From: a virus
Taxonomy: Duplodnaviria; Heunggongvirae; Uroviricota; Caudoviricetes
Reading direction: 5' to 3' (one strand)
DNA: 11,212 bases
Virus record (IMG/VR): IMGVR_UViG_2534681675_000018
Span: 1-11,212 of that record
Shown: in pieces, positions 1 through 11,212 of the stretch
How positions within the stretch are numbered: the first letter of the stretch is position 1
How the letters are laid out: every line of letters starts with the position of its first letter
The notes under the pieces: generated by a model
What the model saw: only the letters and a program-made list of their open reading frames with translations
What the model was told of the DNA's origin: nothing
Database searches by the model: none
Program-made: the position numbers and the translations under genes

Positions 1-435
1 GTGTTTTTTAGTCCATCTTTAAATATTTTTGTGAATCCTGCGCTTAAGGATGACTACATCAATGTAAATTCATGGCCAGATGATGCTGTTGAAGTTGATG
101 AGCAGGTGTATATTGAGTTTTCCGGATTACCGCCGAAAGGAAAAATCCGTATCGCTGGGGAAAATGGTTTTCCTGCATGGTCTGAAATTCCACCACCAAC
201 GCATGAGGAACAGATTGCCGCAGCCGAATTGAAAAAACAGCAATTGATTAATCAGTCCAACGAATATATGAATACCAAGCAATGGCCTGGTAAAGCGGCT
301 ATTGGTCGTCTGAAAGGTGAGGAACTGGCGCAATATAATTTGTGGCTGGATTATCTGGACGCACTGGAACTGGTTGATACCTCCAGTGCTCCAGATATTG
401 AATGGCCTACGCCTCCGGCAGTTCAGGCCAGATGA
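1..435 (+). CDS. tfa: Tail fibre assembly protein (Tfa, P2 gpG / Mu U-like chaperone); 5' end may lie upstream of the window
   Basis: C-terminus ...NLWLDYLDALELVDTSSAPDIEWPTPPA matches the conserved Tfa C-terminal motif and parallels the C-terminus of the convergent copy at 407..1000. ORF starts with GTG at base 1, so the N-terminus is uncertain. Stop TGA at 433..435. Confidence 0.78.
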   Translation: MFFSPSLNIFVNPALKDDYINVNSWPDDAVEVDEQVYIEFSGLPPKGKIRIAGENGFPAWSEIPPPTHEEQIAAAELKKQQLINQSNEYMNTKQWPGKAAIGRLKGEELAQYNLWLDYLDALELVDTSSAPDIEWPTPPAVQAR

Positions 436-1000
436 CATCCGGCGCGGTGCTCGTATCTGTTGCCGTCACCGCGTCAATGTAATCAAGCACGGCGTTAAGC
501 CGGGTGGTTTCTGCCTGCGTCAGCTTCCGCCCGGCCTGTAATTTCAGCTGAATCAGACTGATGGAAGCCATTGCAGCATCAATCAGTGACTGGCGCTGTG
601 CTTCTGCCGCTTCTACTGCGGCACCGTGTTGTGCCTCAGTATCTGTCACCCATTTCTCACCATCCCATTTATCGTATGGCGTTAACGGTGAAAGCGTGAC
701 ATAACCGTCTTTGATGGCACCGATATAATCCACTGTAACAGCAGCACCATTTTCGATTGAGTAAACAGTCTCATTGCGATGGTCTTCTTCATGGCTCCAT
801 CCCTTACCTGTAAATACTGCCACTCTTCCCGGAATGTTTTCGCCAGGGTCAATACCAGTTGAACAGGCGGGCATACTTACGCCAGTATTAATATATTCAT
901 CAGACCAGCCCGTATACTCAGATGTTTCAGCATCATAATAAAAACAACGCATATCACCCGGCACTGTAGCCAGCCCATTTTCATCAAAAACAGGTTTCAT
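407..1000 (-). CDS. tfa: Tail fibre assembly protein, alternate copy (Tfa') inside the invertible segment
   Basis: 197 aa ending ...LNAVLDYIDAVTATDTSTAPDVIWPELPEA (conserved Tfa C-terminus). Convergent with and overlapping the 3' end of the plus-strand tfa by 29 nt. Its ATG overlaps the TAA of the upstream fibre cassette by 1 nt (TAATG), implying translational coupling. Confidence 0.85.
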   Translation of the reverse strand: MKPVFDENGLATVPGDMRCFYYDAETSEYTGWSDEYINTGVSMPACSTGIDPGENIPGRVAVFTGKGWSHEEDHRNETVYSIENGAAVTVDYIGAIKDGYVTLSPLTPYDKWDGEKWVTDTEAQHGAAVEAAEAQRQSLIDAAMASISLIQLKLQAGRKLTQAETTRLNAVLDYIDAVTATDTSTAPDVIWPELPEA

Positions 1001-1506
1001 TATGCAGCCCTCACAATATAATTAAAGGCGATGTTACGTGGACGGTTTTCATTAGCTGTTGGCACGACACGAGAGGCGTCGAATCCAAGGTCATCGGTTT
1101 TGTCTATAGTAGTTGTGTTATTCGGCATTCTCGCTGATCGTGTTCCTGCATCGTAAAAAGCCCCTCTGATTGCATCAAAAGACATACCGATCCCGCCATC
1201 TGCGAATCCCTCAATATTTCTTATTGCATCCCCCTGTGAAGATAATAATTGTCGCCCGGCATCCACTCCACGTCCGTCATCCCAGCCACGAATAAATTCA
1301 CCGCGTAAATCAGGCAATTTATTTTTCGGATAAACCTTTGCCAGTTCCGGGTATTCTTCAGCAGAAAAAGCCGCACCGTTGCATTTCAGCCAGCCAGTAG
1401 GCGGTGTGGCTGAAGGCCACGGAACAGGCACACCAACGGGTAATGCTGAACCTTCTCCCAAACCAACGTTTAAGAAAATGCAGAGATTACGGCTAACTGG
1501 CATCAT
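1000..1506 (-). CDS. Alternate tail-fibre C-terminal (receptor-binding) cassette, promoterless in this orientation
   Basis: Gly-rich sequence with ...GVPVPWPSATPPTGW..., as I recall for variable C-terminal parts of Mu S/S', P1 S and e14/Rac Stf side fibres. No own promoter or RBS context; lies between tfa' and the invertase; contains a gix-like site near its 5' end. The first ATG reported by the ORF track is probably not a real start; the frame would be joined to a constant fibre N-terminus after inversion. Confidence 0.7.
   Translation of the reverse strand: MMPVSRNLCIFLNVGLGEGSALPVGVPVPWPSATPPTGWLKCNGAAFSAEEYPELAKVYPKNKLPDLRGEFIRGWDDGRGVDAGRQLLSSQGDAIRNIEGFADGGIGMSFDAIRGAFYDAGTRSARMPNNTTTIDKTDDLGFDASRVVPTANENRPRNIAFNYIVRAA
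1453..1478. other. Candidate Gin/Hin/Pin-type recombination (crossover) site
   Basis: TTCTCCCAAACC AA CGTTTAAGAAAA: two 12-bp imperfect inverted half-sites around a central AA. By eye about 19/26 identical to hixL (TTCTTGAAAACCAAGGTTTTTGATAA) and similar to gixL, both recalled from memory. Sits at the invertase-proximal edge of the alternate fibre cassette, where Mu gixR / e14 pix sites lie. Confidence 0.45.
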
Positions 1507-1533: not shown

Positions 1534-2133
1534 ATGCTTATTGGCTATGTCCGCGTATCAACAAATGACCAGAATACAGAATTGCAGCGTAACGCGCTGG
1601 AGTGCGCAGGATGTGAACTGATTTTTGAAGATAAAATCAGCGGAACGAAATCAGCCAGACCGGGATTGAAAAAACTGATCAGAACGCTATCAGAAGGAGA
1701 TACGCTGGTTGTCTGGAAGCTGGACAGACTGGGCAGAAGTATGAAACACCTGATCACGCTTATTGAGGAATTGCGGGAAAAAGGTGTTAATTTCCGTAGT
1801 CTGACGGACAGCATTGACACATCAACACCCATGGGGCGTTTCTTTTTTCACGTCATGGGGGCTTTAGCCGAAATGGAACGTGAATTAATTGTAGAGCGTA
1901 CACTGGCCGGGCTGGCGGCAGCGCGCGCACGGGGGCGCATTGGCGGACGTCGCCCGAAGTTGACAAAAGAACAACACGAGCAAATAGCGAGGCTGATTAA
2001 AAACGGTCATGACAGGAAACAACTGGCGATCATTTACGACATCGGCATATCGACGATTTATCGTTATCACCCTGTAGGCGATATACAGGCTGAAGAAACA
2101 ACCAGGCAGACTCAGGAAAATGAAAACCGCTAA
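1534..2133 (+). CDS. Serine DNA invertase (Gin/Hin/Pin/Cin family)
   Basis: 199 aa beginning MLIGYVRVSTNDQNTELQRNALECAGCE...VVWKLDRLGRSMKHLI...FRSLTDSIDTSTPMGRFFFHVMGALAEMERELI..., near-identical in motif content to Mu Gin as I recall it. Catalytic Ser in the RVS motif at residue 9; C-terminal HTH (GISTIYRY). SD AGGGGA 6 nt upstream of the ATG. Confidence 0.95.
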   Translation: MLIGYVRVSTNDQNTELQRNALECAGCELIFEDKISGTKSARPGLKKLIRTLSEGDTLVVWKLDRLGRSMKHLITLIEELREKGVNFRSLTDSIDTSTPMGRFFFHVMGALAEMERELIVERTLAGLAAARARGRIGGRRPKLTKEQHEQIARLIKNGHDRKQLAIIYDIGISTIYRYHPVGDIQAEETTRQTQENENR

Positions 2134-2152
2134 TCTGACCATTAGCGGTTTT
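2123..2152. terminator. Bidirectional hairpin between convergent invertase and gpU genes
   Basis: Perfect 12-bp inverted repeat AAAACCGCTAAT / ATTAGCGGTTTT separated by 6 bp (ctgacc), with A-run on one side and T-run on the other, so it can act as an intrinsic terminator in both directions. The invertase TAA stop (2131..2133) lies inside the left arm. Confidence 0.45.
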
Positions 2153-2159
2153 GCGTTAA

Positions 2160-2654
2160 TCAAAACAGCCCTTTAACGGAGCTGGCCGCGCTGTTAAGGG
2201 ATGATGTGACCTTATCTTTGAAGCCGGACAGCATATCGCTGAACGATGAGGATTGCAGGCGCTCCCGCAAATCCTCATCACAGCGTTCAAGGGTCAGTGA
2301 AAATTCTATCTTTTTCGCCTTACCGTAGCGATCAAACTCGGAGCGGGTCGTATTCGTTCCGGTCAGGACATACATGCCGTAAATCTGCCCGACACCATCA
2401 ATCAGAGGCCAGGGGCGTCCTGTATATGCCTGCGTGGTCAGCAACGAAAGCGATACTTCGCCACCTGTAATTTCAGGATAAAGCACACCAGAAAGAACGA
2501 TGCGATCATCGCCTGCCCCGATATACTGCCAGCTTGCTGAACGGTTAACGCGTTCATTTTTCACATGCCGCCAGCTTTTGTTTTGCTGTAACTGCTGATG
2601 CGGCAATGTGCGCAGCTCAAAAACAAACATGCCGTAGATCATCATCATGGCCAT
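2160..2654 (-). CDS. U: P2 gpU-like tail protein
   Basis: 164 aa, M(A)MMMIYGMFVFELRTLPHQQLQ... resembles the N-terminus of P2 gpU family tail proteins. Immediately downstream of the tape measure on the same strand (T stop 2661..2663, GAGGAG SD in between). True start may be the third ATG (2648). Confidence 0.75.
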   Translation of the reverse strand: MAMMMIYGMFVFELRTLPHQQLQQNKSWRHVKNERVNRSASWQYIGAGDDRIVLSGVLYPEITGGEVSLSLLTTQAYTGRPWPLIDGVGQIYGMYVLTGTNTTRSEFDRYGKAKKIEFSLTLERCDEDLRERLQSSSFSDMLSGFKDKVTSSLNSAASSVKGLF

Positions 2655-2660
2655 GACTCC

Positions 2661-5498
2661 TCAATCTTTATCGTAAAAACTGCCACGCCCGGCACGGGCG
2701 CGCCGTTCCATTTCTGCCCTGACCATTTCACCGACCAGTTTCGCCAGTTCGCGGGGATTCTGCGTAACAACGTTATGCAGATGAACATGAATTTCACCGC
2801 CAAATCCGGAGACAACAGGCTCCCGGTTACGGGAAGTTGCAGGAACTGATGCCACTGGCGATCGTATGGCCTCCGCCACCGGGCGGGAGCTGGCCGCAAC
2901 AACAGGGACCAGCGCCGGAGGCAGAGGAGTCGGGACCACGGGTGTGATGTTGATTGCGGAAGCTGGCTTACTGATCTGCGCAATCTTCCGCTCCTGCCAC
3001 TCCCCACGAACAGCAAGTGCGCGGGGCAGGTTCTTAAAGACAATATCGCCGGGGCCAATGCGTTTTTTCGTCTCATCAACCAGCTTACCTGTGTTATCAG
3101 CAATTTTGCTGAGTCTGCGTAGCGTACCGGTATTGCTGTCTGTGAGCGGTTTGTTGTCTTTGGGTTTATCACCTCCGGTGCCATTTTCCACAGGCTTCGG
3201 CGGATTGATTTTCGCCAGGTCCCCCTGAAGCAAGGCAACCTTGTCCTGAAGAATGGCCGCACGCTGTGCGTCTTCGATTTTCTTTCTCGCCCTTTCCGCT
3301 TCATCCGGAAGCACACCGAGTTTTTCAAGTATCCACGCCAGCGTATCCAGCAGCATTTTTGCAGGCGTCAGAACAAGCTGTAGCGCGCCACCAAGAACGT
3401 TACCGAATATCTCGCCAGCACTGGTACATTTATCCAGCGTTTCCTTGCTGGACTCCATCGGTGACAGCAGCGATTTAAACCAGTTAAAGAGCTGAATAAT
3501 CCCATCGCGCACGACATCAAAAACAGGACCAAACCGTTCAAAGGTTTCGCGCAACGGAGCCAGCCGTTCCATAATCCCACTGAACACCCCGGCATAAAAC
3601 GCCTTGATGGGTTCCCAGTATTTCCAGATGAGAACCGCCGCAGCCACAAACGCGGCAACAATCAATCCGACCGGACTGAACAGCGCCCCGATAGCGCCAC
3701 CCAGCAACGAGATGGAACCTGTTACCATTCCCCATAGTGCTGGCAGCACCCTGACGACATTCATTGATCCGGTCAGGAGAGAAAAACCAAGACGTAACGT
3801 GGCCAGTTTCCCGTGAAGCACGCCAATAACCAGCGACAACGAGCCAATCGTTGCAGTCATTGCCAGCAACGCACCGCCTGCTATCAGTAGCTGGCGCGTC
3901 AGTGCCGGATGGGCCTGCGCCAGCGCCGTCACCCTTGATACCACCCGCGTGAGCCACTGCGTGACAGAACGCAGCGGGCCGTCAATCAGATCTGCAATGC
4001 GGATGCGCAACCCTTCCCATGCACTGCCGAGTGATTTCAGATCGCCATCAAGGTTGTTGGCCATAACCTTTGCCGTGCGTTCAGCCTCACCGCGTGCGCC
4101 TTCAAGTTCTTTTCTCAGTTTGGGTAAGGAACCGTCACCTGCCGCATCAACGAGGGCCATAAACGATGTGAAAGCCTCTTCCCCGGCGATGTCCTTAAAG
4201 AAGGATACCCGGTCAACTTCCCCGTATTTGCGGGTGGCTTTATAAAGGTCGGCCAGCACATCCTCCATCGGGCGCATTTTGCCGTTCGCGTCAGAAACTG
4301 CCACACCAAGCTCTTTCAGCGCCTCTGCTGCTGCCTTTGGCGGTGATGCCAGACGAGCCAGGCTGGCACGCATTGCCGTCCCGGCATCACTCCCTCTGAT
4401 ACCCATATTCGCCAGCACGCCCGCCATCGCTGCGGCCTGCTCCAGCGATATTCCCAGCTTACCCGCCACCGGACCTGCATATTTCATGGTTTCGCCCAGT
4501 GCGCGAAGGTCAGTGTTGGTACGGGTAAACGCTGCGGTGAGTGTGTCACCAACCCGGTCCATCTGGTCAGCAGAAAGGCCGAACTGCGTCAGGATATTTG
4601 AGCCAATATCCGCCGTCTCGCCGAGATCCATGCCGCCAGCCGTTGCCATGCTCAGCACGCCCGGAAGCGCAGCCTGAATGGCCTGCGGTGTGAAGCCAGC
4701 CATTGCAAGAAATGCCTGTCCACTGGCGGCATCGCCTGCGGTGAACTGCGTTTCAGAGCCAAGTTTTAACGCCTGCTCACGCAGCGCCTTAAACTGTGGG
4801 CTGTTCTGGTCGATTCGCGTCAGTGCCTGAACGCGGGACATCTCTTTCCCGAACCCGATCGCAGGCTGCAAAAAACGCCCGGCAGCATAGCCGCCAGCCG
4901 CTGCCGCACCAATTGCCAGCGCACCACCTGTTTTCAGTTTTCCAGCAGTTTCCTGCGCGCGCGAATACCGCTCACGCGCCCGCGTTACACGCGCAAGCGT
5001 CTGCCGTTCGCGTTCAAGCTGGTTGTTGTACTGTTCGGTGCGTCTGATGGCCTGCTGGATGGTGTTATCGCTGCCTGTCAGGGAAATGCCGTGGCGTTTC
5101 AGCTCTCCGCCAAGCTCCCGCATTTTCTGAATTTCCCGTGTGCGCGATTCATTCAGGCGTTCAAGCCGGGTGCTTAACTGCTGCATCAGCTTTTGTTGTT
5201 TTTCGCTGAGCACTGTACCCGTGCGTTGTAACTGATTAAGGGCGTTAAGCTGGCGTCGTGCTTTCACGATGCTCGCATCCGCTTTACTGACAGCGTCACG
5301 GGCGCGCTCAAATGAACGCGCCTGACGCTCGAGATTTTTGATCGCCCCCTGCGTTCGCTGGATGGAGTCACCAAACTGCCCCATCAGGCGGCGGGCGTTT
5401 TCGGCAGGCCGGGTCAGCCTGTCAACGGCGCTGAAAGCGACCCGGATATCAAGAGTCTTCATTGTCTGCATTCCCGCTGCGAAGTGCCGCCCGCTCAC
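2661..5498 (-). CDS. T: Tail tape measure protein (P2 gpT-like)
   Basis: 945 aa with coiled-coil-rich N-terminal third (repeated Q/R/E/L heptad-like stretches), Gly/Ala-rich central region and hydrophobic segments, typical of tape measure proteins. Position after the E/E' chaperone pair and before gpU. GTG start at 5498 is the longest option; ATG at 5471 or 5462 are alternatives. Confidence 0.9.
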   Translation of the reverse strand: MSGRHFAAGMQTMKTLDIRVAFSAVDRLTRPAENARRLMGQFGDSIQRTQGAIKNLERQARSFERARDAVSKADASIVKARRQLNALNQLQRTGTVLSEKQQKLMQQLSTRLERLNESRTREIQKMRELGGELKRHGISLTGSDNTIQQAIRRTEQYNNQLERERQTLARVTRARERYSRAQETAGKLKTGGALAIGAAAAGGYAAGRFLQPAIGFGKEMSRVQALTRIDQNSPQFKALREQALKLGSETQFTAGDAASGQAFLAMAGFTPQAIQAALPGVLSMATAGGMDLGETADIGSNILTQFGLSADQMDRVGDTLTAAFTRTNTDLRALGETMKYAGPVAGKLGISLEQAAAMAGVLANMGIRGSDAGTAMRASLARLASPPKAAAEALKELGVAVSDANGKMRPMEDVLADLYKATRKYGEVDRVSFFKDIAGEEAFTSFMALVDAAGDGSLPKLRKELEGARGEAERTAKVMANNLDGDLKSLGSAWEGLRIRIADLIDGPLRSVTQWLTRVVSRVTALAQAHPALTRQLLIAGGALLAMTATIGSLSLVIGVLHGKLATLRLGFSLLTGSMNVVRVLPALWGMVTGSISLLGGAIGALFSPVGLIVAAFVAAAVLIWKYWEPIKAFYAGVFSGIMERLAPLRETFERFGPVFDVVRDGIIQLFNWFKSLLSPMESSKETLDKCTSAGEIFGNVLGGALQLVLTPAKMLLDTLAWILEKLGVLPDEAERARKKIEDAQRAAILQDKVALLQGDLAKINPPKPVENGTGGDKPKDNKPLTDSNTGTLRRLSKIADNTGKLVDETKKRIGPGDIVFKNLPRALAVRGEWQERKIAQISKPASAINITPVVPTPLPPALVPVVAASSRPVAEAIRSPVASVPATSRNREPVVSGFGGEIHVHLHNVVTQNPRELAKLVGEMVRAEMERRARAGRGSFYDKD

Positions 5499-5987
5499 GC
5501 CAGCTAACCACTTCGCCGGGCGTCATCATGAAGATTTCGGCGGGCGACCAGTTAAAAATGGCGGCGATATCTGCCACCAGATCTTCGATGTGCTCAAAGC
5601 ACACCAGGGTGATTACGCTGCCGTCTCCTGCACGCTCTTCGCGCCAGAGTCTGGCTCGCTCATAAAATTTACAGCCACAGCGCACAACTGAATAAAATCG
5701 CGTGACGACATTTTTTTAATCATCACTTCATCCAGTCGTGGCGAGGTCACGCGAGGCAACAGCGTGAACATGGTATCCGCTTTCAGATTCAGCACATCAG
5801 ACAGCGACAGACCACGCAGGGATCCAGCCTGTTCAATAGCCCCGGTGATCTCCACATACGTGATTTTTTCGCCACCACGCTCAATTGGTCGGGTCAGTTT
5901 TACGCCACGTTCGACAGCCATATCCTCACCTGCCGTCACATCATCCACCACGGTGTTATTCCGGGTTTCAGTATCGATGTCTTTCAT
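5449..5987 (-). CDS. Predicted E+E' fusion chaperone made by programmed -1 ribosomal frameshift (E codons 1-92 joined to the -1 frame ending at 5449)
   Basis: The -1 frame relative to E has no stop from the A7 run at 5711..5717 down to 5449 and overlaps the tape measure start. This matches the conserved tail-chaperone frameshift architecture (lambda G/GT, P2 E/E+E'). Confidence 0.55.
5613..5987 (-). CDS. E: Tail assembly chaperone (P2 gpE-like)
   Basis: 124 aa ORF directly between the tube gene and the tape measure, with AAGGAG SD 6-7 nt upstream of the ATG at 5987. An A7 run (5711..5717) lies in the coding sequence and a -1 frame is open from that point to 5449, the hallmark of the E/E+E' pair. 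Confidence 0.7.
   Translation of the reverse strand: MKDIDTETRNNTVVDDVTAGEDMAVERGVKLTRPIERGGEKITYVEITGAIEQAGSLRGLSLSDVLNLKADTMFTLLPRVTSPRLDEVMIKKMSSRDFIQLCAVAVNFMSEPDSGAKSVQETAA
5711..5717 (-). other. Putative -1 frameshift slippery site (A AAA AAA on the coding strand)
   Basis: T7 on the plus strand = A7 on the coding strand, read as AUU AAA AAA AUG in the E frame. Slipping back one base on the Lys codons reads AAU GUC GUC... in the open E' frame. Confidence 0.5.
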
Positions 5988-6042
5988 CAGTTTTCTCCTT
6001 TTCAGTCAGAGGCGACGCACTGCGCCGCCTGCATATTACTTA

Positions 6043-6555
6043 TCAGCCAAGCCCGAGCGCGGAACGGATACGGTCAGGCACAATGTCCTTGCCGTCCTTC
6101 CGGTAGATGTGGTTCAACAGGTCGATTTCCCACAGCGGGCGATCGTTAACGCTCAGCTTGTAGTAGGTGTTTTTGACAGCGTAAGTGTGTGATGTGGCTT
6201 CGCCCTGTTTGGCTTCCCCCATATCAATTTCCGTCACACGTCCGCGCATCTCGATTTCATACAGATCGCTTTCTGCATCGGTGTAGTATTCACCCGCAAA
6301 ACGCAGCAGCGTGCCGTCAATCGCGCCGCCATATTTAAGGAACAGCGCACGAACAGCTCCCCCCATGACAAAACTCGCATCAAGCGCGGAGTCGTCCAGA
6401 CCGAGATCAATACTTACCGCCCCCATCATGCCACCACCACGATAGCTGTCGGTTTTGCGCGTCAGTTTGGGCGGCGTGACGGATGTCACTTTACCCACTT
6501 CGTTTTCACCATCCACAAACAACGTAAAAAAGCGAAGATGTTTTGGTACAGCCAT
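6043..6555 (-). CDS. FII: Tail tube protein (P2 FII-like)
   Basis: 170 aa immediately downstream of the sheath gene. Sheath stop and tube start overlap (TGATG) at 6553..6557. Size and position match the contractile-tail tube protein. Confidence 0.88.
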   Translation of the reverse strand: MAVPKHLRFFTLFVDGENEVGKVTSVTPPKLTRKTDSYRGGGMMGAVSIDLGLDDSALDASFVMGGAVRALFLKYGGAIDGTLLRFAGEYYTDAESDLYEIEMRGRVTEIDMGEAKQGEATSHTYAVKNTYYKLSVNDRPLWEIDLLNHIYRKDGKDIVPDRIRSALGLG

Positions 6556-7739
6556 CAGGCACCTCCCAGCACCGCAAATGCGGGACCAAAGAATTCATCA
6601 GTAAACGTCTGGTAAAGCTCCATGTCTTCCAGCGGGGGAACAGGCGTATATTTGTAGCGAATACGCACACGTCCCTGACGTAAATTCGTGGTGCCGTTAT
6701 CCACCACGTCATACCAGCACTCCGCACCAATCAGTTTCCCGGCAGTAACCAGCGAATCCAGTTTTGCCCTGATGGCGCTGATAACATCCTTCACGTTCGC
6801 AGGTGTCAGTGGACTGTCGATGGTTTCAAACTGCGCTTCCGCAATTGAATCAGCCAGCACCTGTGCGGTTCGGGTATACACCTCAAAGATGTAGGCGTTC
6901 GTTTCCGGTGTGCGGTTGCCCCAGAAGCGGAACCCGTTGCGACGAATAATGGTCGTGATTTCTTTGTTGTTGAGGCTGTTGGCATCGCTGTCTTCGGCCT
7001 GCAACGACCAGAACACATGCCTGGACATCCCCAGCACATTTTTAACCGGAACGTTGGACAGCGATTTGTGCCAGCCCTGTTCATGGTCAATGTACGCACG
7101 AAGGCCGCACGCATAGGCAGGCGCGGGGAACGTTTCGTTTTCGCCACTTTTCGGGTTGTAGGCGATGAAGTCCGGCCATAAGAGCATCACTTCACGTTCG
7201 TTGAATTTCTGGCGGTAGGTAATCGCTTCAGCCATCGTGTTACAGCCGTGACATGAGGCATACACAAATGCGCGCAGTTTACCCGCAATCACGCACAGGG
7301 ATTTTGTCACCGCCTCCGTGTCCAGCTCCGGCGCGGCCAGAATACGCGGACGGTATCCGATGCTTTCATCCTGCTCTGCAACAAGCAGCGCATACATCCC
7401 CGTATAGCTGCCGTCATCCTCAGAACCACCGATAACCAGTTGATCCTGCGTCTTTTCGTCTTCTTCTTTGTGTTCAGCCACGCGAACGACGATCACCTTT
7501 GTGCTCACCTGGTCTGCGATGGCCTTAAGCGCACGATAAAGCGTCCCCGTTGTCCCGCATTTCCCCAGCACGTCATTGACGCGGGTCAGCAGTGTGGGCT
7601 TGTTCAGCGGGAACAGCTTCGCGTCCGCATCATCCGCCGTTGCCACGATACCGATAACGCTGGAATCAACATCGTTAATCGCTGTTACCAGGTCGGTATT
7701 TTCCGTAACACGGGCACCATGAAAACGAGTTTCACTCAT
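6555..7739 (-). CDS. FI: Contractile tail sheath protein (P2 FI-like)
   Basis: 394 aa, the size of P2 FI; first gene of the sheath-tube-chaperone-tape measure order; AAGGGG SD upstream of the ATG at 7739. Confidence 0.9.
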   Translation of the reverse strand: MSETRFHGARVTENTDLVTAINDVDSSVIGIVATADDADAKLFPLNKPTLLTRVNDVLGKCGTTGTLYRALKAIADQVSTKVIVVRVAEHKEEDEKTQDQLVIGGSEDDGSYTGMYALLVAEQDESIGYRPRILAAPELDTEAVTKSLCVIAGKLRAFVYASCHGCNTMAEAITYRQKFNEREVMLLWPDFIAYNPKSGENETFPAPAYACGLRAYIDHEQGWHKSLSNVPVKNVLGMSRHVFWSLQAEDSDANSLNNKEITTIIRRNGFRFWGNRTPETNAYIFEVYTRTAQVLADSIAEAQFETIDSPLTPANVKDVISAIRAKLDSLVTAGKLIGAECWYDVVDNGTTNLRQGRVRIRYKYTPVPPLEDMELYQTFTDEFFGPAFAVLGGA

Positions 7740-7896
7740 AGCTTCAGCCCCTTGTATCCGTTAAATGATTCAGCAACAATCATCACCCACCACGCGCGTA
7801 ATCTCACCCCTGCGCTATTCTCCCGTCACGGCGACAACAAAAAGCAGTAACCCACTCCGCACGCACATGCGACCATGCCGCACAGGGAGGGAACAG

Positions 7897-9006
7897 ATGA
7901 CCGACACCACCATGCAATTGCTCAGTCAGGGCACAGACCCCGTGAAAATGCCGGATTTTGATATTCTCGCGGAGGGTAAAACGTTGTCAGGCGTGGCAGA
8001 GCGCCTGATGAGCCTGTCACTGACCGACAACCGGGGATTTGAGGCGGACCAGCTCACCATCACGCTGGATGATGCGGATGGTCAGTTGCAGCTACCGCTA
8101 CGGGGCGCGCGCCTGACGGTTCTCATTGGCTGGAAGGGAGAACCGCTGACAGAAAAAGGCACTTACATTGTTGATGAAATCGCTCACGAAGGACCGCCGG
8201 ACAGGCTGACTGTTTCAGCCAGAAGCGCAGATTTTCGGGATGAATTTAACGTTAAACGTGAGGTGTCCTGGCATGATGTGACCATTGAGCGTGTGGTATC
8301 CGCCATCGCTCATCGGTATGGTCTGAAACCGCAAATCAGCGAAATGCTGATGGATATCGAAATCGACCACGCCGACCAGACCGAAGAAAGCGACATGTCC
8401 TTCCTTACGCGCATGGCGGAAATGCTGGGCGCAATCACCACGGTAAAAAGCGGCAATCTGTTATTCATCATGCCAGGTGGTGGCGTGAACGCACAGGGCC
8501 AGCCGTTGCCCTCGTTCGCCATTACACGCAGCAGCGGCGATCGCCATCAGTTCCGTATTGCTGACCGCGAGGCTTATACGGGGGTACGCGCCTACTGGCT
8601 TGATCTTAATTACGGGAAAAAGAAAAAAGTCAGCGTAAAACGCCGTAAACCGCCAAAACCCAAAAAGGAGAAAAGCAGCAGCCGTGAAGGTGATTATATG
8701 GAAGGCGCGGAAGGCAATGTGTTTGTGTTACGCAAGACTTATCAGAACGAGCAGGCAGCAAGACGCGCAGCGGCGGCAAAGTGGCAGCAACTACAACGCG
8801 GAGCCGCAGCGTTCTCCATCACGCTGGCGCGTGGACGTGCAGAACTCTACCCCGAAATGCATGGCACGGTAACAGGATTTAAAAGCGAGATTGATAATCA
8901 GGACTGGATCATTGCAAAAGCCGAGCACACCATTGATAACAGTGGCTTTACCACGCAGCTTGAGCTTGAAGCAAAAATCCCGGAATGGATAGCAGAAACA
9001 GAGTGA
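7897..9006 (+). CDS. D: P2 gpD-like tail protein (late control gene D family)
   Basis: Start chosen at ATG 7897 (MTDTTMQLLSQGTDPVKMPDFDILAEGKTL...) because it has a strong SD AGGGAGG 6 nt upstream. The upstream part of the track ORF (7765..7896) is low-complexity and not protein-like. About 369 aa, the size of gpD, and followed directly by ogr as in P2. Confidence 0.85.
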   Translation: MTDTTMQLLSQGTDPVKMPDFDILAEGKTLSGVAERLMSLSLTDNRGFEADQLTITLDDADGQLQLPLRGARLTVLIGWKGEPLTEKGTYIVDEIAHEGPPDRLTVSARSADFRDEFNVKREVSWHDVTIERVVSAIAHRYGLKPQISEMLMDIEIDHADQTEESDMSFLTRMAEMLGAITTVKSGNLLFIMPGGGVNAQGQPLPSFAITRSSGDRHQFRIADREAYTGVRAYWLDLNYGKKKKVSVKRRKPPKPKKEKSSSREGDYMEGAEGNVFVLRKTYQNEQAARRAAAAKWQQLQRGAAAFSITLARGRAELYPEMHGTVTGFKSEIDNQDWIIAKAEHTIDNSGFTTQLELEAKIPEWIAETE

Positions 9007-9048
9007 GCAACTTAGAATAGCGGCAGCACCACGTTAAGGGAGGTCGCT

Positions 9049-9309
9049 ATGTTCCGTTGTCCGCTTTGTGGCGCATCTGCCCGTATCCGCACCAGTCGTC
9101 CGGAAAATGATTCAAACACCGTGCGGCAAAAGTATTACCAGTGTAACAATCTGGAATGCGGCGTATGCTTCTCAACACTGGAAGCTTTCCATAAATTCAC
9201 ATCGAAACATGCCTCCGGCGTTCACTCTTCAGAAGGTATCCCGTGGCATGAGCTGCCAGCTTCACACAGGGGAAACAATCAGATGAGCTTGCCTTTATCT
9301 CAGAATTAA
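9049..9309 (+). CDS. ogr: Ogr/Delta-family zinc-finger late transcription activator
   Basis: MFRCPLCGASARIRTSR...YYQCNNLECGVCF... has the C-x2-C-x22-C-x4-C arrangement and the MFxCPLC N-terminus of P2 Ogr. SD AAGGGAGG 5 nt upstream. Confidence 0.85.
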   Translation: MFRCPLCGASARIRTSRPENDSNTVRQKYYQCNNLECGVCFSTLEAFHKFTSKHASGVHSSEGIPWHELPASHRGNNQMSLPLSQN

Positions 9310-9318
9310 CAGGCAGAA

Positions 9319-9347
9319 TTGCCGGAGTAACAAAAAAGCGATAGATT
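9319..9347 (+). promoter_or_regulatory. Candidate sigma70 promoter for the Hok-like toxin transcript
   Basis: TTGCCG - 17 bp - TAGATT immediately after the ogr stop. The predicted transcript 5' end (about 9352..9356, GCGCGGGUGCC) would give a roughly 400-nt RNA ending at the 9720..9744 hairpin, the size class of hok mRNAs. Confidence 0.3.
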
Positions 9348-9369
9348 ACGCGCGGGTGCCTTTCGGCTG

Positions 9370-9633
9370 ATGGTCGGAGGGAATACCCGAAGGCCGGATG
9401 TGGAAAGGCCCCGGAAAACATTTCTGTTTAACCGAGGCCCTAACCGCATTACCTTGACAAGTGAAAGGTTAGCGCCTCTCCGGAAAAGGAGCAAGTGCTA
9501 TGTCGCAAAAATCGCTTACGGCCATCACGTTCTGCGTGACGGCAATCCTCATCATCTGGATGCTGCATGGTTCGCTGTGCGAAATACGGATGAGCTTCTG
9601 GGGAGCGGAGTTTGCGGCGTTCTTACAGTGTAA
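9370..9633 (+). CDS. Possible mok-like overlapping reading frame (modulator of toxin translation)
   Basis: Open frame starting upstream of the toxin ORF, overlapping almost all of it and ending 7 nt before its stop, the same geometry as mok/hok. Protein is low-complexity, so it may only serve translational coupling. Real start uncertain (ATG 9370 or GTG 9400). Confidence 0.3.
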   Translation: MVGGNTRRPDVERPRKTFLFNRGPNRITLTSERLAPLRKRSKCYVAKIAYGHHVLRDGNPHHLDAAWFAVRNTDELLGSGVCGVLTV

Positions 9634-9640
9634 GCAGTAA
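9500..9640 (+). CDS. hok: Hok/Gef-family type I toxin (46 aa small membrane protein)
   Basis: Not in the ORF track (below 60 aa). ATG 9500 with SD AAGGAG 8 nt upstream; TAA at 9638..9640. Protein MSQKSLTAITFCVTAILIIWMLHGSLCEIRMSFWGAEFAAFLQCKQ has an N-terminal hydrophobic helix with C-V-T-A-I and C-terminal SLCEIR...E.AAF, matching Hok (...KSLCEIRYRDGHREVAAF...). Confidence 0.65.
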   Translation: MSQKSLTAITFCVTAILIIWMLHGSLCEIRMSFWGAEFAAFLQCKQ

Positions 9641-9719
9641 GGAAACCGCGACGGGGGAGCAATCCCCCGTCAATCGGTTGCCAGGGTATGGTCGAAGTGG
9701 CACCCAAATTTAAATTGAG

Positions 9720-9775: not shown

Positions 9776-10078
9776 ATGAGTGAAATGGTATTTTGTCGCG
9801 GATGCGGCAAGGAAATACATAAAGATGCCACATCCTGCCCCAATTGTGGAGCACCTCAAAGAACAGCAAGTTCAAAAAGCAGAATGACAGCCGCACTACT
9901 GGCTTTCTTTTTAGGTGGTCTTGGTGCACACAAATTTTATTTAGGTAAAGTGGGGCAAGGATTCCTTTACCTTATTTTTGCTGGACATTCATTCCGGCAA
10001 TCGTGGCATTTATTGAGTTTTTTATCTATCTATGCACCTCTGATGAAGACTTTGCCCGCAAATATGGCTAATGCCTAG
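9776..10078 (+). CDS. Zinc-ribbon / TM2-domain membrane protein, with apparently frameshifted C-terminus
   Basis: N-terminal CRGCG...CPNCG zinc ribbon, then LLAFFLGGLGAHKFYLGK (TM2-domain-like first helix and GAH+FY motif). After the T5 run at 9975..9979 the -1 frame encodes a clean second helix and acidic tail (CWTFIPAIVAFIEFFIYLCTSDEDFARKYG, stop 10069..10071), whereas the in-frame continuation (AGHSFRQSWHLLSFLSIYAPLMKTLPANMANA) is not helix-like. SD AAAGGA 7 nt upstream of the ATG. Confidence 0.7.
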   Translation: MSEMVFCRGCGKEIHKDATSCPNCGAPQRTASSKSRMTAALLAFFLGGLGAHKFYLGKVGQGFLYLIFAGHSFRQSWHLLSFLSIYAPLMKTLPANMANA

Positions 10079-10097
10079 TGGGCGAATCAGAATGACA

Positions 10098-10131
10098 AAC
10101 CCGCAGCATAAAAACTGCGGGTTTTCTTTTT
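10098..10131 (+). terminator. Rho-independent terminator downstream of the TM2 gene
   Basis: AAACCCGCAG cataaaaa CTGCGGGTTT followed by TCTTTTT: GC-rich 7-bp stem (extendable by A-T pairs) plus a U-run. Confidence 0.75.
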
Positions 10132-10229: not shown

Positions 10230-10263
10230 ATCGGCAGCAGTAACCACACAAGAGGTGCCGCAA

Positions 10264-10461
10264 ATGACGCAAAATGTACGATGCAAAAATTGCAACAAAC
10301 TACTTGCCCGCGCCTCATTTCACTACATTGAAATAAAATGTCCGCGCTGCAAAACACTTAACCAGATAACGAGAGCCATCGAGCACCCCACACACATGAG
10401 GAGTTATGACCGTGGGGATCGCAATCCAGCACCAACCAGCACATACACCGGAACACACTAA
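10264..10461 (+). CDS. com: Com-like zinc-finger translational regulator
   Basis: MTQNVRCKNCNKLLARASFHYIEIKCPRCKTLNQITRAIEHPT... closely parallels Mu Com as I recall it (MKSIRCKNCNKLLF...HIEIRCPRCK...EHPT), including the four-Cys zinc finger. ATG 10264 preferred over the track's GTG 10255 (SD AGAGG 8 nt upstream). The 3' end overlaps the methyltransferase start by 56 nt, as com overlaps mom. Confidence 0.75.
   Translation: MTQNVRCKNCNKLLARASFHYIEIKCPRCKTLNQITRAIEHPTHMRSYDRGDRNPAPTSTYTGTH
10386..10417 (+). promoter_or_regulatory. Predicted RNA stem-loop sequestering the methyltransferase SD and start codon
   Basis: CCCCAC (10386..10391) pairs with GTGGGG (10412..10417). The 20-nt loop contains GAGGAG (10398..10403) and the ATG at 10406; a fourth GATC sits at 10417..10420. 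Analogous to the translation-inhibition stem of the Mu mom mRNA that Com relieves. Confidence 0.35.
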
Positions 10462-11212
10462 GGTTTATCAGACTGACAATGCCACGCTCTGTCGTGGGAA
10501 TGCGCTGGAAATATTGCCGCTGATTGAGCCAGAAAGCATTGATGCCTTAATCACTGACCCGCCTTACAGTTCGGGTGCGACACACAAGGCCGGACGCACC
10601 AACCAAGGCAGCCATGCAAAATATCTGAACGGCGAGAACCTTCACCGCTTTGATGGGTTCGCGGGTGAAAACATGGACGCCCGTTCGTGGGCTTACTGGA
10701 CACAATTATGGATGGCACAGGCACACCGCGCAGTCAGGCCGGGCGGTTATGCCCTGGTATTTACTGACTGGCGACAACTACCAGCTTTAACCGATGCGTT
10801 TCAGGCCAGCGGCTTTACATGGCGCGGCATCATTGCGTGGAACAAGGGGAGGGGGTCACGAACACCCCATACGGGGTATTTCAGGCATCAGTGCGAATAC
10901 ATCGTCTGGGGCAGCAAAGGCCATTTAGATAAATCGCCTTCGGGGCCGTTCGACGGCTGCATGACGTACCCGGTTATCCCGTCAAAGAAAATGCACCCGA
11001 CCGGAAAACCAGAAGAACTAATGGCGGAACTGGTCAGGACTGTGAATAGTGGCGGAACAGTCCTTGATCCTTTTATGGGGTCAGGGACAACGGGTGTGGC
11101 TGCACTGAAAGCAGGGCGAAAATTTATTGGTATAGAAACCAGTGATCATTATTTTGAGGTAGCAGCGCAGCGGCTTCGGGGGACTATTACCACAACCATT
11201 TCGGCTACATAA
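10406..11212 (+). CDS. DNA methyltransferase, beta-class amino-methyltransferase (N6-adenine or N4-cytosine; DPPY motif)
   Basis: 268 aa with catalytic motif IV LITDPPYSSG near the N-terminus and AdoMet-binding motif I (LDPFMGSGTTGVAALKAGRKFIGIE) near the C-terminus. This motif order defines the beta group. Start at ATG 10406 or GTG 10412; stop TAA is the last three bases of the window. No restriction endonuclease partner in the window. Confidence 0.9.
   Translation: MTVGIAIQHQPAHTPEHTKVYQTDNATLCRGNALEILPLIEPESIDALITDPPYSSGATHKAGRTNQGSHAKYLNGENLHRFDGFAGENMDARSWAYWTQLWMAQAHRAVRPGGYALVFTDWRQLPALTDAFQASGFTWRGIIAWNKGRGSRTPHTGYFRHQCEYIVWGSKGHLDKSPSGPFDGCMTYPVIPSKKMHPTGKPEELMAELVRTVNSGGTVLDPFMGSGTTGVAALKAGRKFIGIETSDHYFEVAAQRLRGTITTTISAT

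Follow-up and report, generated by a model that had tools for sequence, protein, structure and literature searches.

Genes and features of the window

The window is the whole stretch of DNA analysed here, 11,212 nucleotides in length, and it belongs to a P2-family prophage of the P88 type (Xuanwuvirus-like). Genes were assigned from the listing of open reading frames and from Pfam, and are summarized with the other features in Table 1. FI, FII, E/E', T, U, D and Ogr, the components of a P2-type contractile-tail module, were all present, and the Pfam matches exceeded the curated cut-off for every tail-module gene but E. The gene identities in the block are unambiguous. All block proteins aligned over their full length with those of P88, and thus the block gives no sign of decay. 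A search of the window against Rfam at the gathering threshold detected no RNA family.

Table 1 Features of the window.
Feature	Position	Strand	Basis or remark
Tail-fibre assembly gene	1-435	+	ORF listing and Pfam
Second fibre assembly gene	407-1000	-	ORF listing and Pfam
Fibre C-terminal (Collar) segment, alternative	1000-1506	-	ORF listing and Pfam
Serine DNA invertase, Gin/Hin/Pin type	1534-2133	+	Pfam Resolvase 9e-52 and HTH_7
Hairpin, perfect 12-bp stem, T-runs on both strands	2123-2152		Terminator scan
U, gpU-like tail protein	2160-2654	-	PF06995 Phage_P2_GpU 1.5e-38; 100% to P88 U
T, gpT tape measure	2661-5498 (longest ORF)	-	PF10145 PhageMin_Tail 2.3e-58; 97% to P88 T
E', -1 frame extension of E	5449-5685	-	PF06528 Phage_P2_GpE 2.1e-12
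E, gpE tail chaperone	5613-5987	-	Phage_TAC_7, 20.5 bits (weak; cut-off 25 bits)
FII, gpFII tail tube	6043-6555	-	PF04985 Phage_tube 2.9e-45
FI, gpFI tail sheath	6555-7739	-	Pfam sheath domains; 98% to P88 FI
FI/D spacer	7740-7896		157 bp
Predicted PF -10 hexamer GATGAT	7779-7784	-	Starts 44 nt from dyad centre
Late-promoter dyad TCT-N12-ACA, predicted Ogr site	7819-7836		TCTCCCGTCACGGCGACA, then ACAAAAAG
Predicted extended -10 TG-n-GACCAT for D	7868-7876	+	Hexamer starts 44 nt from dyad centre
D, gpD baseplate hub / late control D	7897-9006	+	PF05954 Phage_GPD 1.6e-17; 98% to P88 D
ogr, Ogr/Delta-type zinc-finger late activator, 86 aa	9049-9309	+	PF04606 Ogr_Delta 5e-14; 98% to P88 ORF
Cargo genes	beyond 9309	+	ORF listing and Pfam

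A sequence-only reading of this DNA had placed U, T, E/E', FII and FI (2160-7739) on the minus strand, between a convergent junction with the invertase and a divergent 157-bp junction with D. The ORF listing and Pfam confirmed this arrangement. The stop codons of the invertase and U are 26 bp apart, and FI, the first gene of the leftward operon, is separated from D by the spacer at 7740-7896. The same reading had assigned the fibre module, the invertase, D and ogr to the plus strand. This held for the last three but only partly for the fibre module, whose part at 407-1506 is on the minus strand, as is expected of an invertible fibre segment. The invertase is part of the invertible tail-fibre module (switch at 1-1530), not of the U-FI block. 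It abuts the left side of the block, and phages SEN5 and Chuche lack it despite having the same block orientation. In this lineage, FI-FII-E/E'-T-U is opposite in orientation to V-W-J-I-H-G and D-ogr.

RNA folds of the hairpin at the convergent junction had energies of -16.9 kcal/mol (z -3.2) for the plus strand and -18.5 kcal/mol for the minus strand. Judged by its stem and T-runs, it is probably a bidirectional intrinsic terminator, which would close the invertase/U junction. Within the block, the probable start codon of T is the ATG at 5462, which gives a 14-nt overlap with the E' stop codon as in P88. By reading of the sequence only, AAATTTT at 5670-5664 is a candidate slippery heptamer for E/E'. 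The start codon of D agrees with the annotated starts in P88 and phiSM.

Gene order in relatives and its distribution

We compared the window with phage records using megablast. P88, P884B11, Citrobacter phiSM, PhiR44_2, 500465-2, 520873, 503458 and Chuche matched with 92-96% nucleotide identity spanning both junctions, in one or two alignment pieces per phage and in a single piece for most. These phages belong to the genus Xuanwuvirus, and the annotated strands in P88, phiSM and Chuche agree with those of the window. P88, which has a contractile tail, was induced and formed plaques, and its burst size was about 65 (PMC5285337). The temperate phage phiSM is active: it is spontaneously released, forms plaques and lysogenises (PMC6456863). 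As both phages are viable, the order of the block is compatible with a working virion.

We also searched complete E. coli genomes for both junctions. The one between FI and D (7340-8300) was intact in 1356 of 5426 genomes, three of which were 100% identical to the window over 961 bp. The invertase/U junction was intact in 621 genomes and 100% identical over 741 bp in one. In addition, we built a synthetic P2-type junction by joining the 3' end of U to the 5' end of D. Its halves were matched in 1413 E. coli genomes and were joined in none of them, indicating that the block is fixed in orientation and does not switch.

We mapped the window proteins onto more distant phages. The block was reversed in SEN5 (Senquatrovirus), Kp4871-3 (Reginaelenavirus) and Kp4847-1 (Reipivirus). 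The order was colinear in L-413C, SopEPhi and ST512-KPC3phi13.2, where FI, FII, E, E', T, U, D and ogr follow one another as the sequence-only reading had stated for P2. When D was compared with phages by tblastn, the identities fell into separate ranges: 90-99% for Xuanwuvirus, 60-80% for Klebsiella and Salmonella phages, and then 53% or less for P2, 186, SopEPhi and others.

To this comparison we added bacterial genomes, in which each species was represented by a single genome that aligned with D; the best 80 of 433 genome hits were taken. The sampled genome loci, the phages and the window together made 85 classified loci. All 69 loci with a D at least 61% identical to that of the window had the reversed order, and all 16 with a D 48-53% identical had the P2 order; this split describes a sample whose genome loci were the best 80 of 433 hits. 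On a neighbour-joining tree of D, the reversed and colinear sets were reciprocally monophyletic. Four ICTV genera are represented among the reversed loci, along with prophages from about 27 host genera. Nearly all of these hosts are Enterobacterales, and they include Salmonella, Serratia, Erwinia, Pantoea, Klebsiella, Enterobacter, Kosakonia, Brenneria, Pectobacterium, Edwardsiella, Xenorhabdus, Photorhabdus, Providencia, Morganella, Yersinia and Hafnia.

The order is standard in Xuanwuvirus (P88, P884B11, 520873 and 503458) and likewise in Senquatrovirus, Reginaelenavirus and Reipivirus. A recognised phage subgroup thus has this arrangement as its regular order, a finding that the sequence-only reading had itself named as a refutation. 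Of the three options which that reading had offered, the evidence selects a lineage-specific gene order. The order is almost certainly old and fixed rather than polymorphic, and descends from the ancestor shared by a large clade of Peduoviridae infecting Enterobacterales. One ancient event behind it is the simplest reading. The inversion was not mentioned in the searchable texts on P88, phiSM and SEN4/5. The gene order itself is already catalogued, being plain in deposited and classified genomes.

Predicted late-promoter architecture of the FI/D spacer

The sequence-only reading had also concluded that D, being separated from the FI operon, requires a promoter of its own. This was right, and the conserved promoter-like architecture of the FI/D spacer supports it. 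The late-promoter consensus of P2 is TGT-N12-ACA, as cited (PMC3931495). A scan of the whole P88 genome for exact TGT-N12-ACA detected two sites only, neither at a late promoter. This result indicated that the lineage uses TCT-N12-ACAAC, and a one-mismatch search was thus adopted. The box of the window, TCT-N12-ACA, differs from the P2 consensus by one mismatch. No other site in the spacer has one mismatch or less, and the box is the sole instance of T[GC]T-N12-ACAAC in the whole window.

The spacers of the reversed clade are mostly 145-164 bp in length. One central T(G/C)T-N12-ACA was present in 60 of 65 distinct spacers, with exact TGT-N12-ACA in 34 of the 65. We anchored these 60 spacers on the dyad centre and scored hexamers having A as their second and T as their sixth base. 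A -10-like hexamer began exactly at offset 44 on the FI side (minus strand) in 57 spacers and on the D side (plus strand) in 53, counts that overstate independence because the 60 spacers are phylogenetically related. At other offsets a hexamer occurred in at most 11 of 60 spacers, and the columns between box and hexamer were poorly conserved. On the D side, T at offset 41 and G at offset 42 were found in 37 and 52 of the 60 spacers, respectively. The distance to the D start codon ranges from 55 to 110 nt, while the D-side hexamer keeps its rigid offset of 44 nt, which is the pattern expected if the spacing from the box is under selection.

In the window, the hexamers span 44-49 nt from the box centre on both sides. 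An Ogr/Delta-dependent late promoter has a TGT-N12-ACA dyad whose centre is about 55 bp upstream of the start, a -10 element and a poor -35, and is transcribed with the help of Ogr and the alpha subunit of RNA polymerase; with its predicted start sites, the spacer agrees with the sequence part of this definition. Assuming about 7 nt after the hexamer, transcription is predicted to start at approximately 7772 on the minus strand and 7883 on the plus strand, which places the box centre at about -55.5 for both promoters. The predicted D start lies just upstream of a GGGAGGG ribosome-binding site.

We compared this architecture with that of colinear phages. Their PF has the same box, with the hexamer at +44 (+45 in L-413C) and the box centre 78-83 nt from the FI ATG, whereas the mirrored hexamer on the far side was detected in 1 of 14 colinear phages. 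Thus, the FI half of the spacer is an ordinary PF that was carried along with the block, and the -10 on the D side is derived in the reversed clade.

A similar layout is seen at the P and O late promoters of P2-like phages, where a divergent spacer of 154-173 bp carries one box at its centre, with -10-like hexamers mirrored on either side; these promoters serve other genes (terminase and scaffold) than the FI/D spacer. In the divergent terL/scaffold spacer of P88, a single box is flanked by hexamers at +45 and +44, which are mirrored within a tolerance of 1 nt but fail a strict +44/+44 test. The P/O spacer of L-413C has a more degenerate box (two mismatches) and the same mirrored hexamers. A single 18-bp site was assigned to both PP' and PO', the divergent promoters of Smp131 (PMC3931495), and this shared site is a precedent in the family for divergent promoters on one box.

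On this sequence evidence, one Ogr site probably serves two divergent late promoters. The single box would drive the leftward transcription of FI to U and the rightward promoter of D, with D probably reading into ogr. We also lean, with some reserve, towards the view that the bidirectional box, at an equal distance of about -55.5 from the two starts, activates both operons, and that the inversion was tolerated since a palindromic site may be used from its other face after a -10 element has arisen in the mirror position.

Alternatively, with the order specific to the lineage as above, the D promoter may be independent of the box, either as an Ogr-independent extended -10 promoter or through an unrecognised second site. 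Extended -10 promoters can function without an activator, and ogr of P2 has an Ogr-independent promoter of its own. Both are in keeping with such a promoter, as is the TG that most spacers have one base before the D-side hexamer. However, the rigid 44-nt offset to the dyad centre amid variable distances to the D start speaks against an independent promoter, as does the presence of a single box-like site in each spacer. A generic sigma-70 scan likewise found no promoter in the FI/D spacer, a null result that is uninformative for activator-dependent promoters. We consider an independent D promoter unlikely.

Origin of the reversed order and comparison with known systems

The reversed order probably arose by one rearrangement, with one breakpoint immediately upstream of PF, the late promoter, and the other between U and D. 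Such an event would have turned the block from PF-FI to U and brought the dyad-symmetric Ogr site of PF directly upstream of D, where a -10 element would later have been fixed at the mirror-image distance.

An inversion in situ would be unnecessary if the FI-U module had been replaced by a horizontally acquired module in the reverse orientation. P2-like phages are mosaic, and E of the window shares only 76% identity with P88 E, as against 96-100% for the neighbouring proteins, both of which suit a replacement. On the other hand, FI, FII, U and D are similarly diverged from the P2-type proteins (41-49%), and the geometry of PF (box, -10 and distance to the FI ATG) has been kept with the block. 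These features fit a simple inversion of resident DNA, and we regard a module replacement as improbable. The present-day outcome of the two routes is equal.

The idea that this prophage has undergone a recent 5.6-kb inversion, possibly making it defective, drew on the unlikeness of its order to P2, 186, SopEPhi and L-413C; it is rejected as having a negligible chance of being true, as the order is identical in isolated plaque-forming phages (PMC5285337, PMC6456863), in 1356 complete E. coli genomes and, across about 27 host genera, in relatives whose D is as little as 61% identical, and the ORFs of the block are all intact and full length relative to P88. A block misoriented in the source assembly, for which the unusual order alone would speak, is rejected with the same firmness, because independent closed genomes contain both junctions with 100% identity (961 bp in three and 741 bp in one) and the junctions also occur in independently sequenced phage genomes.

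The chance is also minimal that the adjoining serine invertase actively flips the block through secondary sites, with both orientations present in populations. The invertase gene does lie beside the block, and 5688-5708 and 8020-8038 weakly match a hix-like site at 1503-1523 (76-79% over 19-21 nt). These matches, however, lie inside the coding sequences of E and D, away from the junctions, and an inverted-repeat search of the whole window found no pair linking 2130-2165 with 7735-7900. The flipped U-D junction was absent from all 1413 E. coli genomes, and the orientation is the same in relatives without the invertase (SEN5, Chuche and the Klebsiella phages). The 5.6-kb block thus has neither mark of a serine-invertase segment, namely crossover sites at its ends and occurrence in both orientations. 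From their positions within E and D, the two hix-like matches were attributed to chance.

A fixed P88-type gene order combined with the shared-box promoter model is very probably the best explanation as a whole. The new element is modest in scope, namely the predicted shared bidirectional late promoter. If the model is true, it would be a natural case of promoter capture by inversion, in which a small zinc-finger activator works bidirectionally from a single site, and read-through from D into ogr would form a late positive-feedback loop. The predicted D promoter and start sites could guide the annotation and engineering of P88-type phages and tailocins. The main value of the analysis is a correction: P2 is not suitable as the synteny template for every Peduoviridae prophage. 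Thus, an "inverted" tail block beside D, an order carried by about one quarter of complete E. coli genomes, is not a flag for rearrangement, defect or misassembly.

Among known systems, the closest to the window are P88 and other members of Xuanwuvirus, including phiSM of Citrobacter rodentium. Order and orientation are identical from the invertase to ogr, with 92-96% nucleotide identity over 1535-9705 of the window and the same 157-bp FI/D spacer and box. The proteins are 95-100% identical, except for E (76% in P88, 99% in phiSM) and the invertase (86-87%). The fibre-module sequences (1-1500) differ from those of the window. Beyond 9705 the window, unlike these phages, has a TM2/zinc-ribbon ORF and a com-like ORF with a DNA methyltransferase, the last of which is common to phage Chuche. 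In total, approximately 73% of the 11.2-kb window matches Xuanwuvirus members at 92-96%, and the fibre end and the right-hand cargo differ. The ICTV genus criterion is about 70% nucleotide identity over the full genome.

Senquatrovirus (SEN4/5), Reginaelenavirus (Klebsiella 3LV2017) and Reipivirus also have the reversed block, and their divergent FI/D spacer, 153-157 bp in length, holds a dyad at its centre. The dyad is exact TGT-N12-ACA in two of these three genera and TCT-N12-ACA in Reipivirus Kp4847-1. Compared with the window, U, E, FII, FI and D are 44-72% identical, T is 28-51% and Ogr is 36-46%. SEN5 and the Klebsiella phages have no invertase beside U.

Operon F of P2, 186 and L-413C contains the same eight genes by Pfam, with 35-49% protein identity and the same E/E' arrangement. 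PF in these phages likewise has a TGT-N12-ACA-type box, with the -10 at 44-45 nt from the box centre, which itself lies about 80 nt from the FI ATG. In P2, all of the genes run in one direction and D closes the operon, directly after U on the same strand and with no promoter of its own, the stop codon of U overlapping the start of D, whereas in the window the block is reversed and D is divergent. The window is placed outside the P2-type F operon, as D is detached: U is read from the minus strand and D from the plus strand, with the whole block separating them.

Late-promoter boxes in divergent head-gene spacers

The spacer between P and O of L-413C, a colinear P2-type phage, and that between terL and the scaffold gene of P88 each contain a single central late-promoter box, the predicted Ogr-binding dyad. 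In both spacers, mirrored − 10-like hexamers are located 44–45 nt from the box centre. As one box with mirrored hexamers is present in both, these sequences suggest that a single shared box is the general layout for divergent late promoters in this family. The positions of these spacers and of the features at the window ends are summarized in the table.

Features at the window ends and head-gene spacers of related phages
Feature	Sequence	Position	Strand
Fibre-assembly gene	Window	1-435	plus
Second fibre-assembly gene, opposite to the first	Window	407-1000	minus
Alternative fibre C-terminus	Window	1000-1506	minus
hix/gix-like half-site, directly upstream of the invertase gene	Window	~1500-1525	
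87-aa ORF	Window	9370-9633	
ORF with zinc ribbon and TM2 domain, low GC (about 0.41)	Window	within 9776-10124	
Strong terminator hairpin after the zinc ribbon/TM2 ORF	Window	10097-10124	
Small ORF and N6/N4 DNA methyltransferase gene, the ORF overlapping the gene's start	Window	10255-11212	
P/O spacer	L-413C (L091)	2996-3168	
terL/scaffold spacer	P88 (L090)	14152-14305	

The tail block and its deposited relatives

E contains the heptamer A AAT TTT on the minus strand (5664-5670), a candidate − 1 frameshift site leading into the E' frame, and the E' frame matched Pfam GpE. The probable start codon of T is ATG 5462, not GTG 5498; from this ATG, T would overlap the E' stop codon by 14 nt, as it does in P88.

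Symbiopectobacterium purcellii MEX carries three copies of a P88-type prophage in one genome (L014, L015, and L018), and an insertion of approximately 1.6 kb separates FII and FI in one of them. IS100 was found within the tail block of two Xuanwuvirus records, phages 520873 and 503458.

The deposited annotation of Citrobacter phage Shae_phiSM (OR565851.1, 11029-13480; L002) is one gene out of register: 'late control gene D protein' is the label on the sheath gene, and 'ogr' that on D. A 226-kb contig labelled Vagococcus sp. WN89Y (NZ_JBQPOM010000071.1; L011) bears a P88-type prophage whose D is 98% identical to that of the window. The contig is assigned to a Gram-positive genus, which most likely reflects contamination or mislabelling of the assembly.

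Fibre segment and cargo genes

Positions 1-1530 are an invertible tail-fibre segment, whose second crossover site lies outside the window.

At the right end, the 87-aa ORF had no Pfam match, and no hok/sok RNA was detected there in Rfam at the gathering threshold; the corresponding ORFs of P88 and Chuche carry the annotation of a MokW/hok-gef-type host-killing protein. The zinc ribbon/TM2 region looks like lineage-specific cargo, because the match to the window ends at 9705 in most related phages. The equivalent of the terminal gene pair in Chuche is annotated as a Com-like translational regulator and a methyltransferase.
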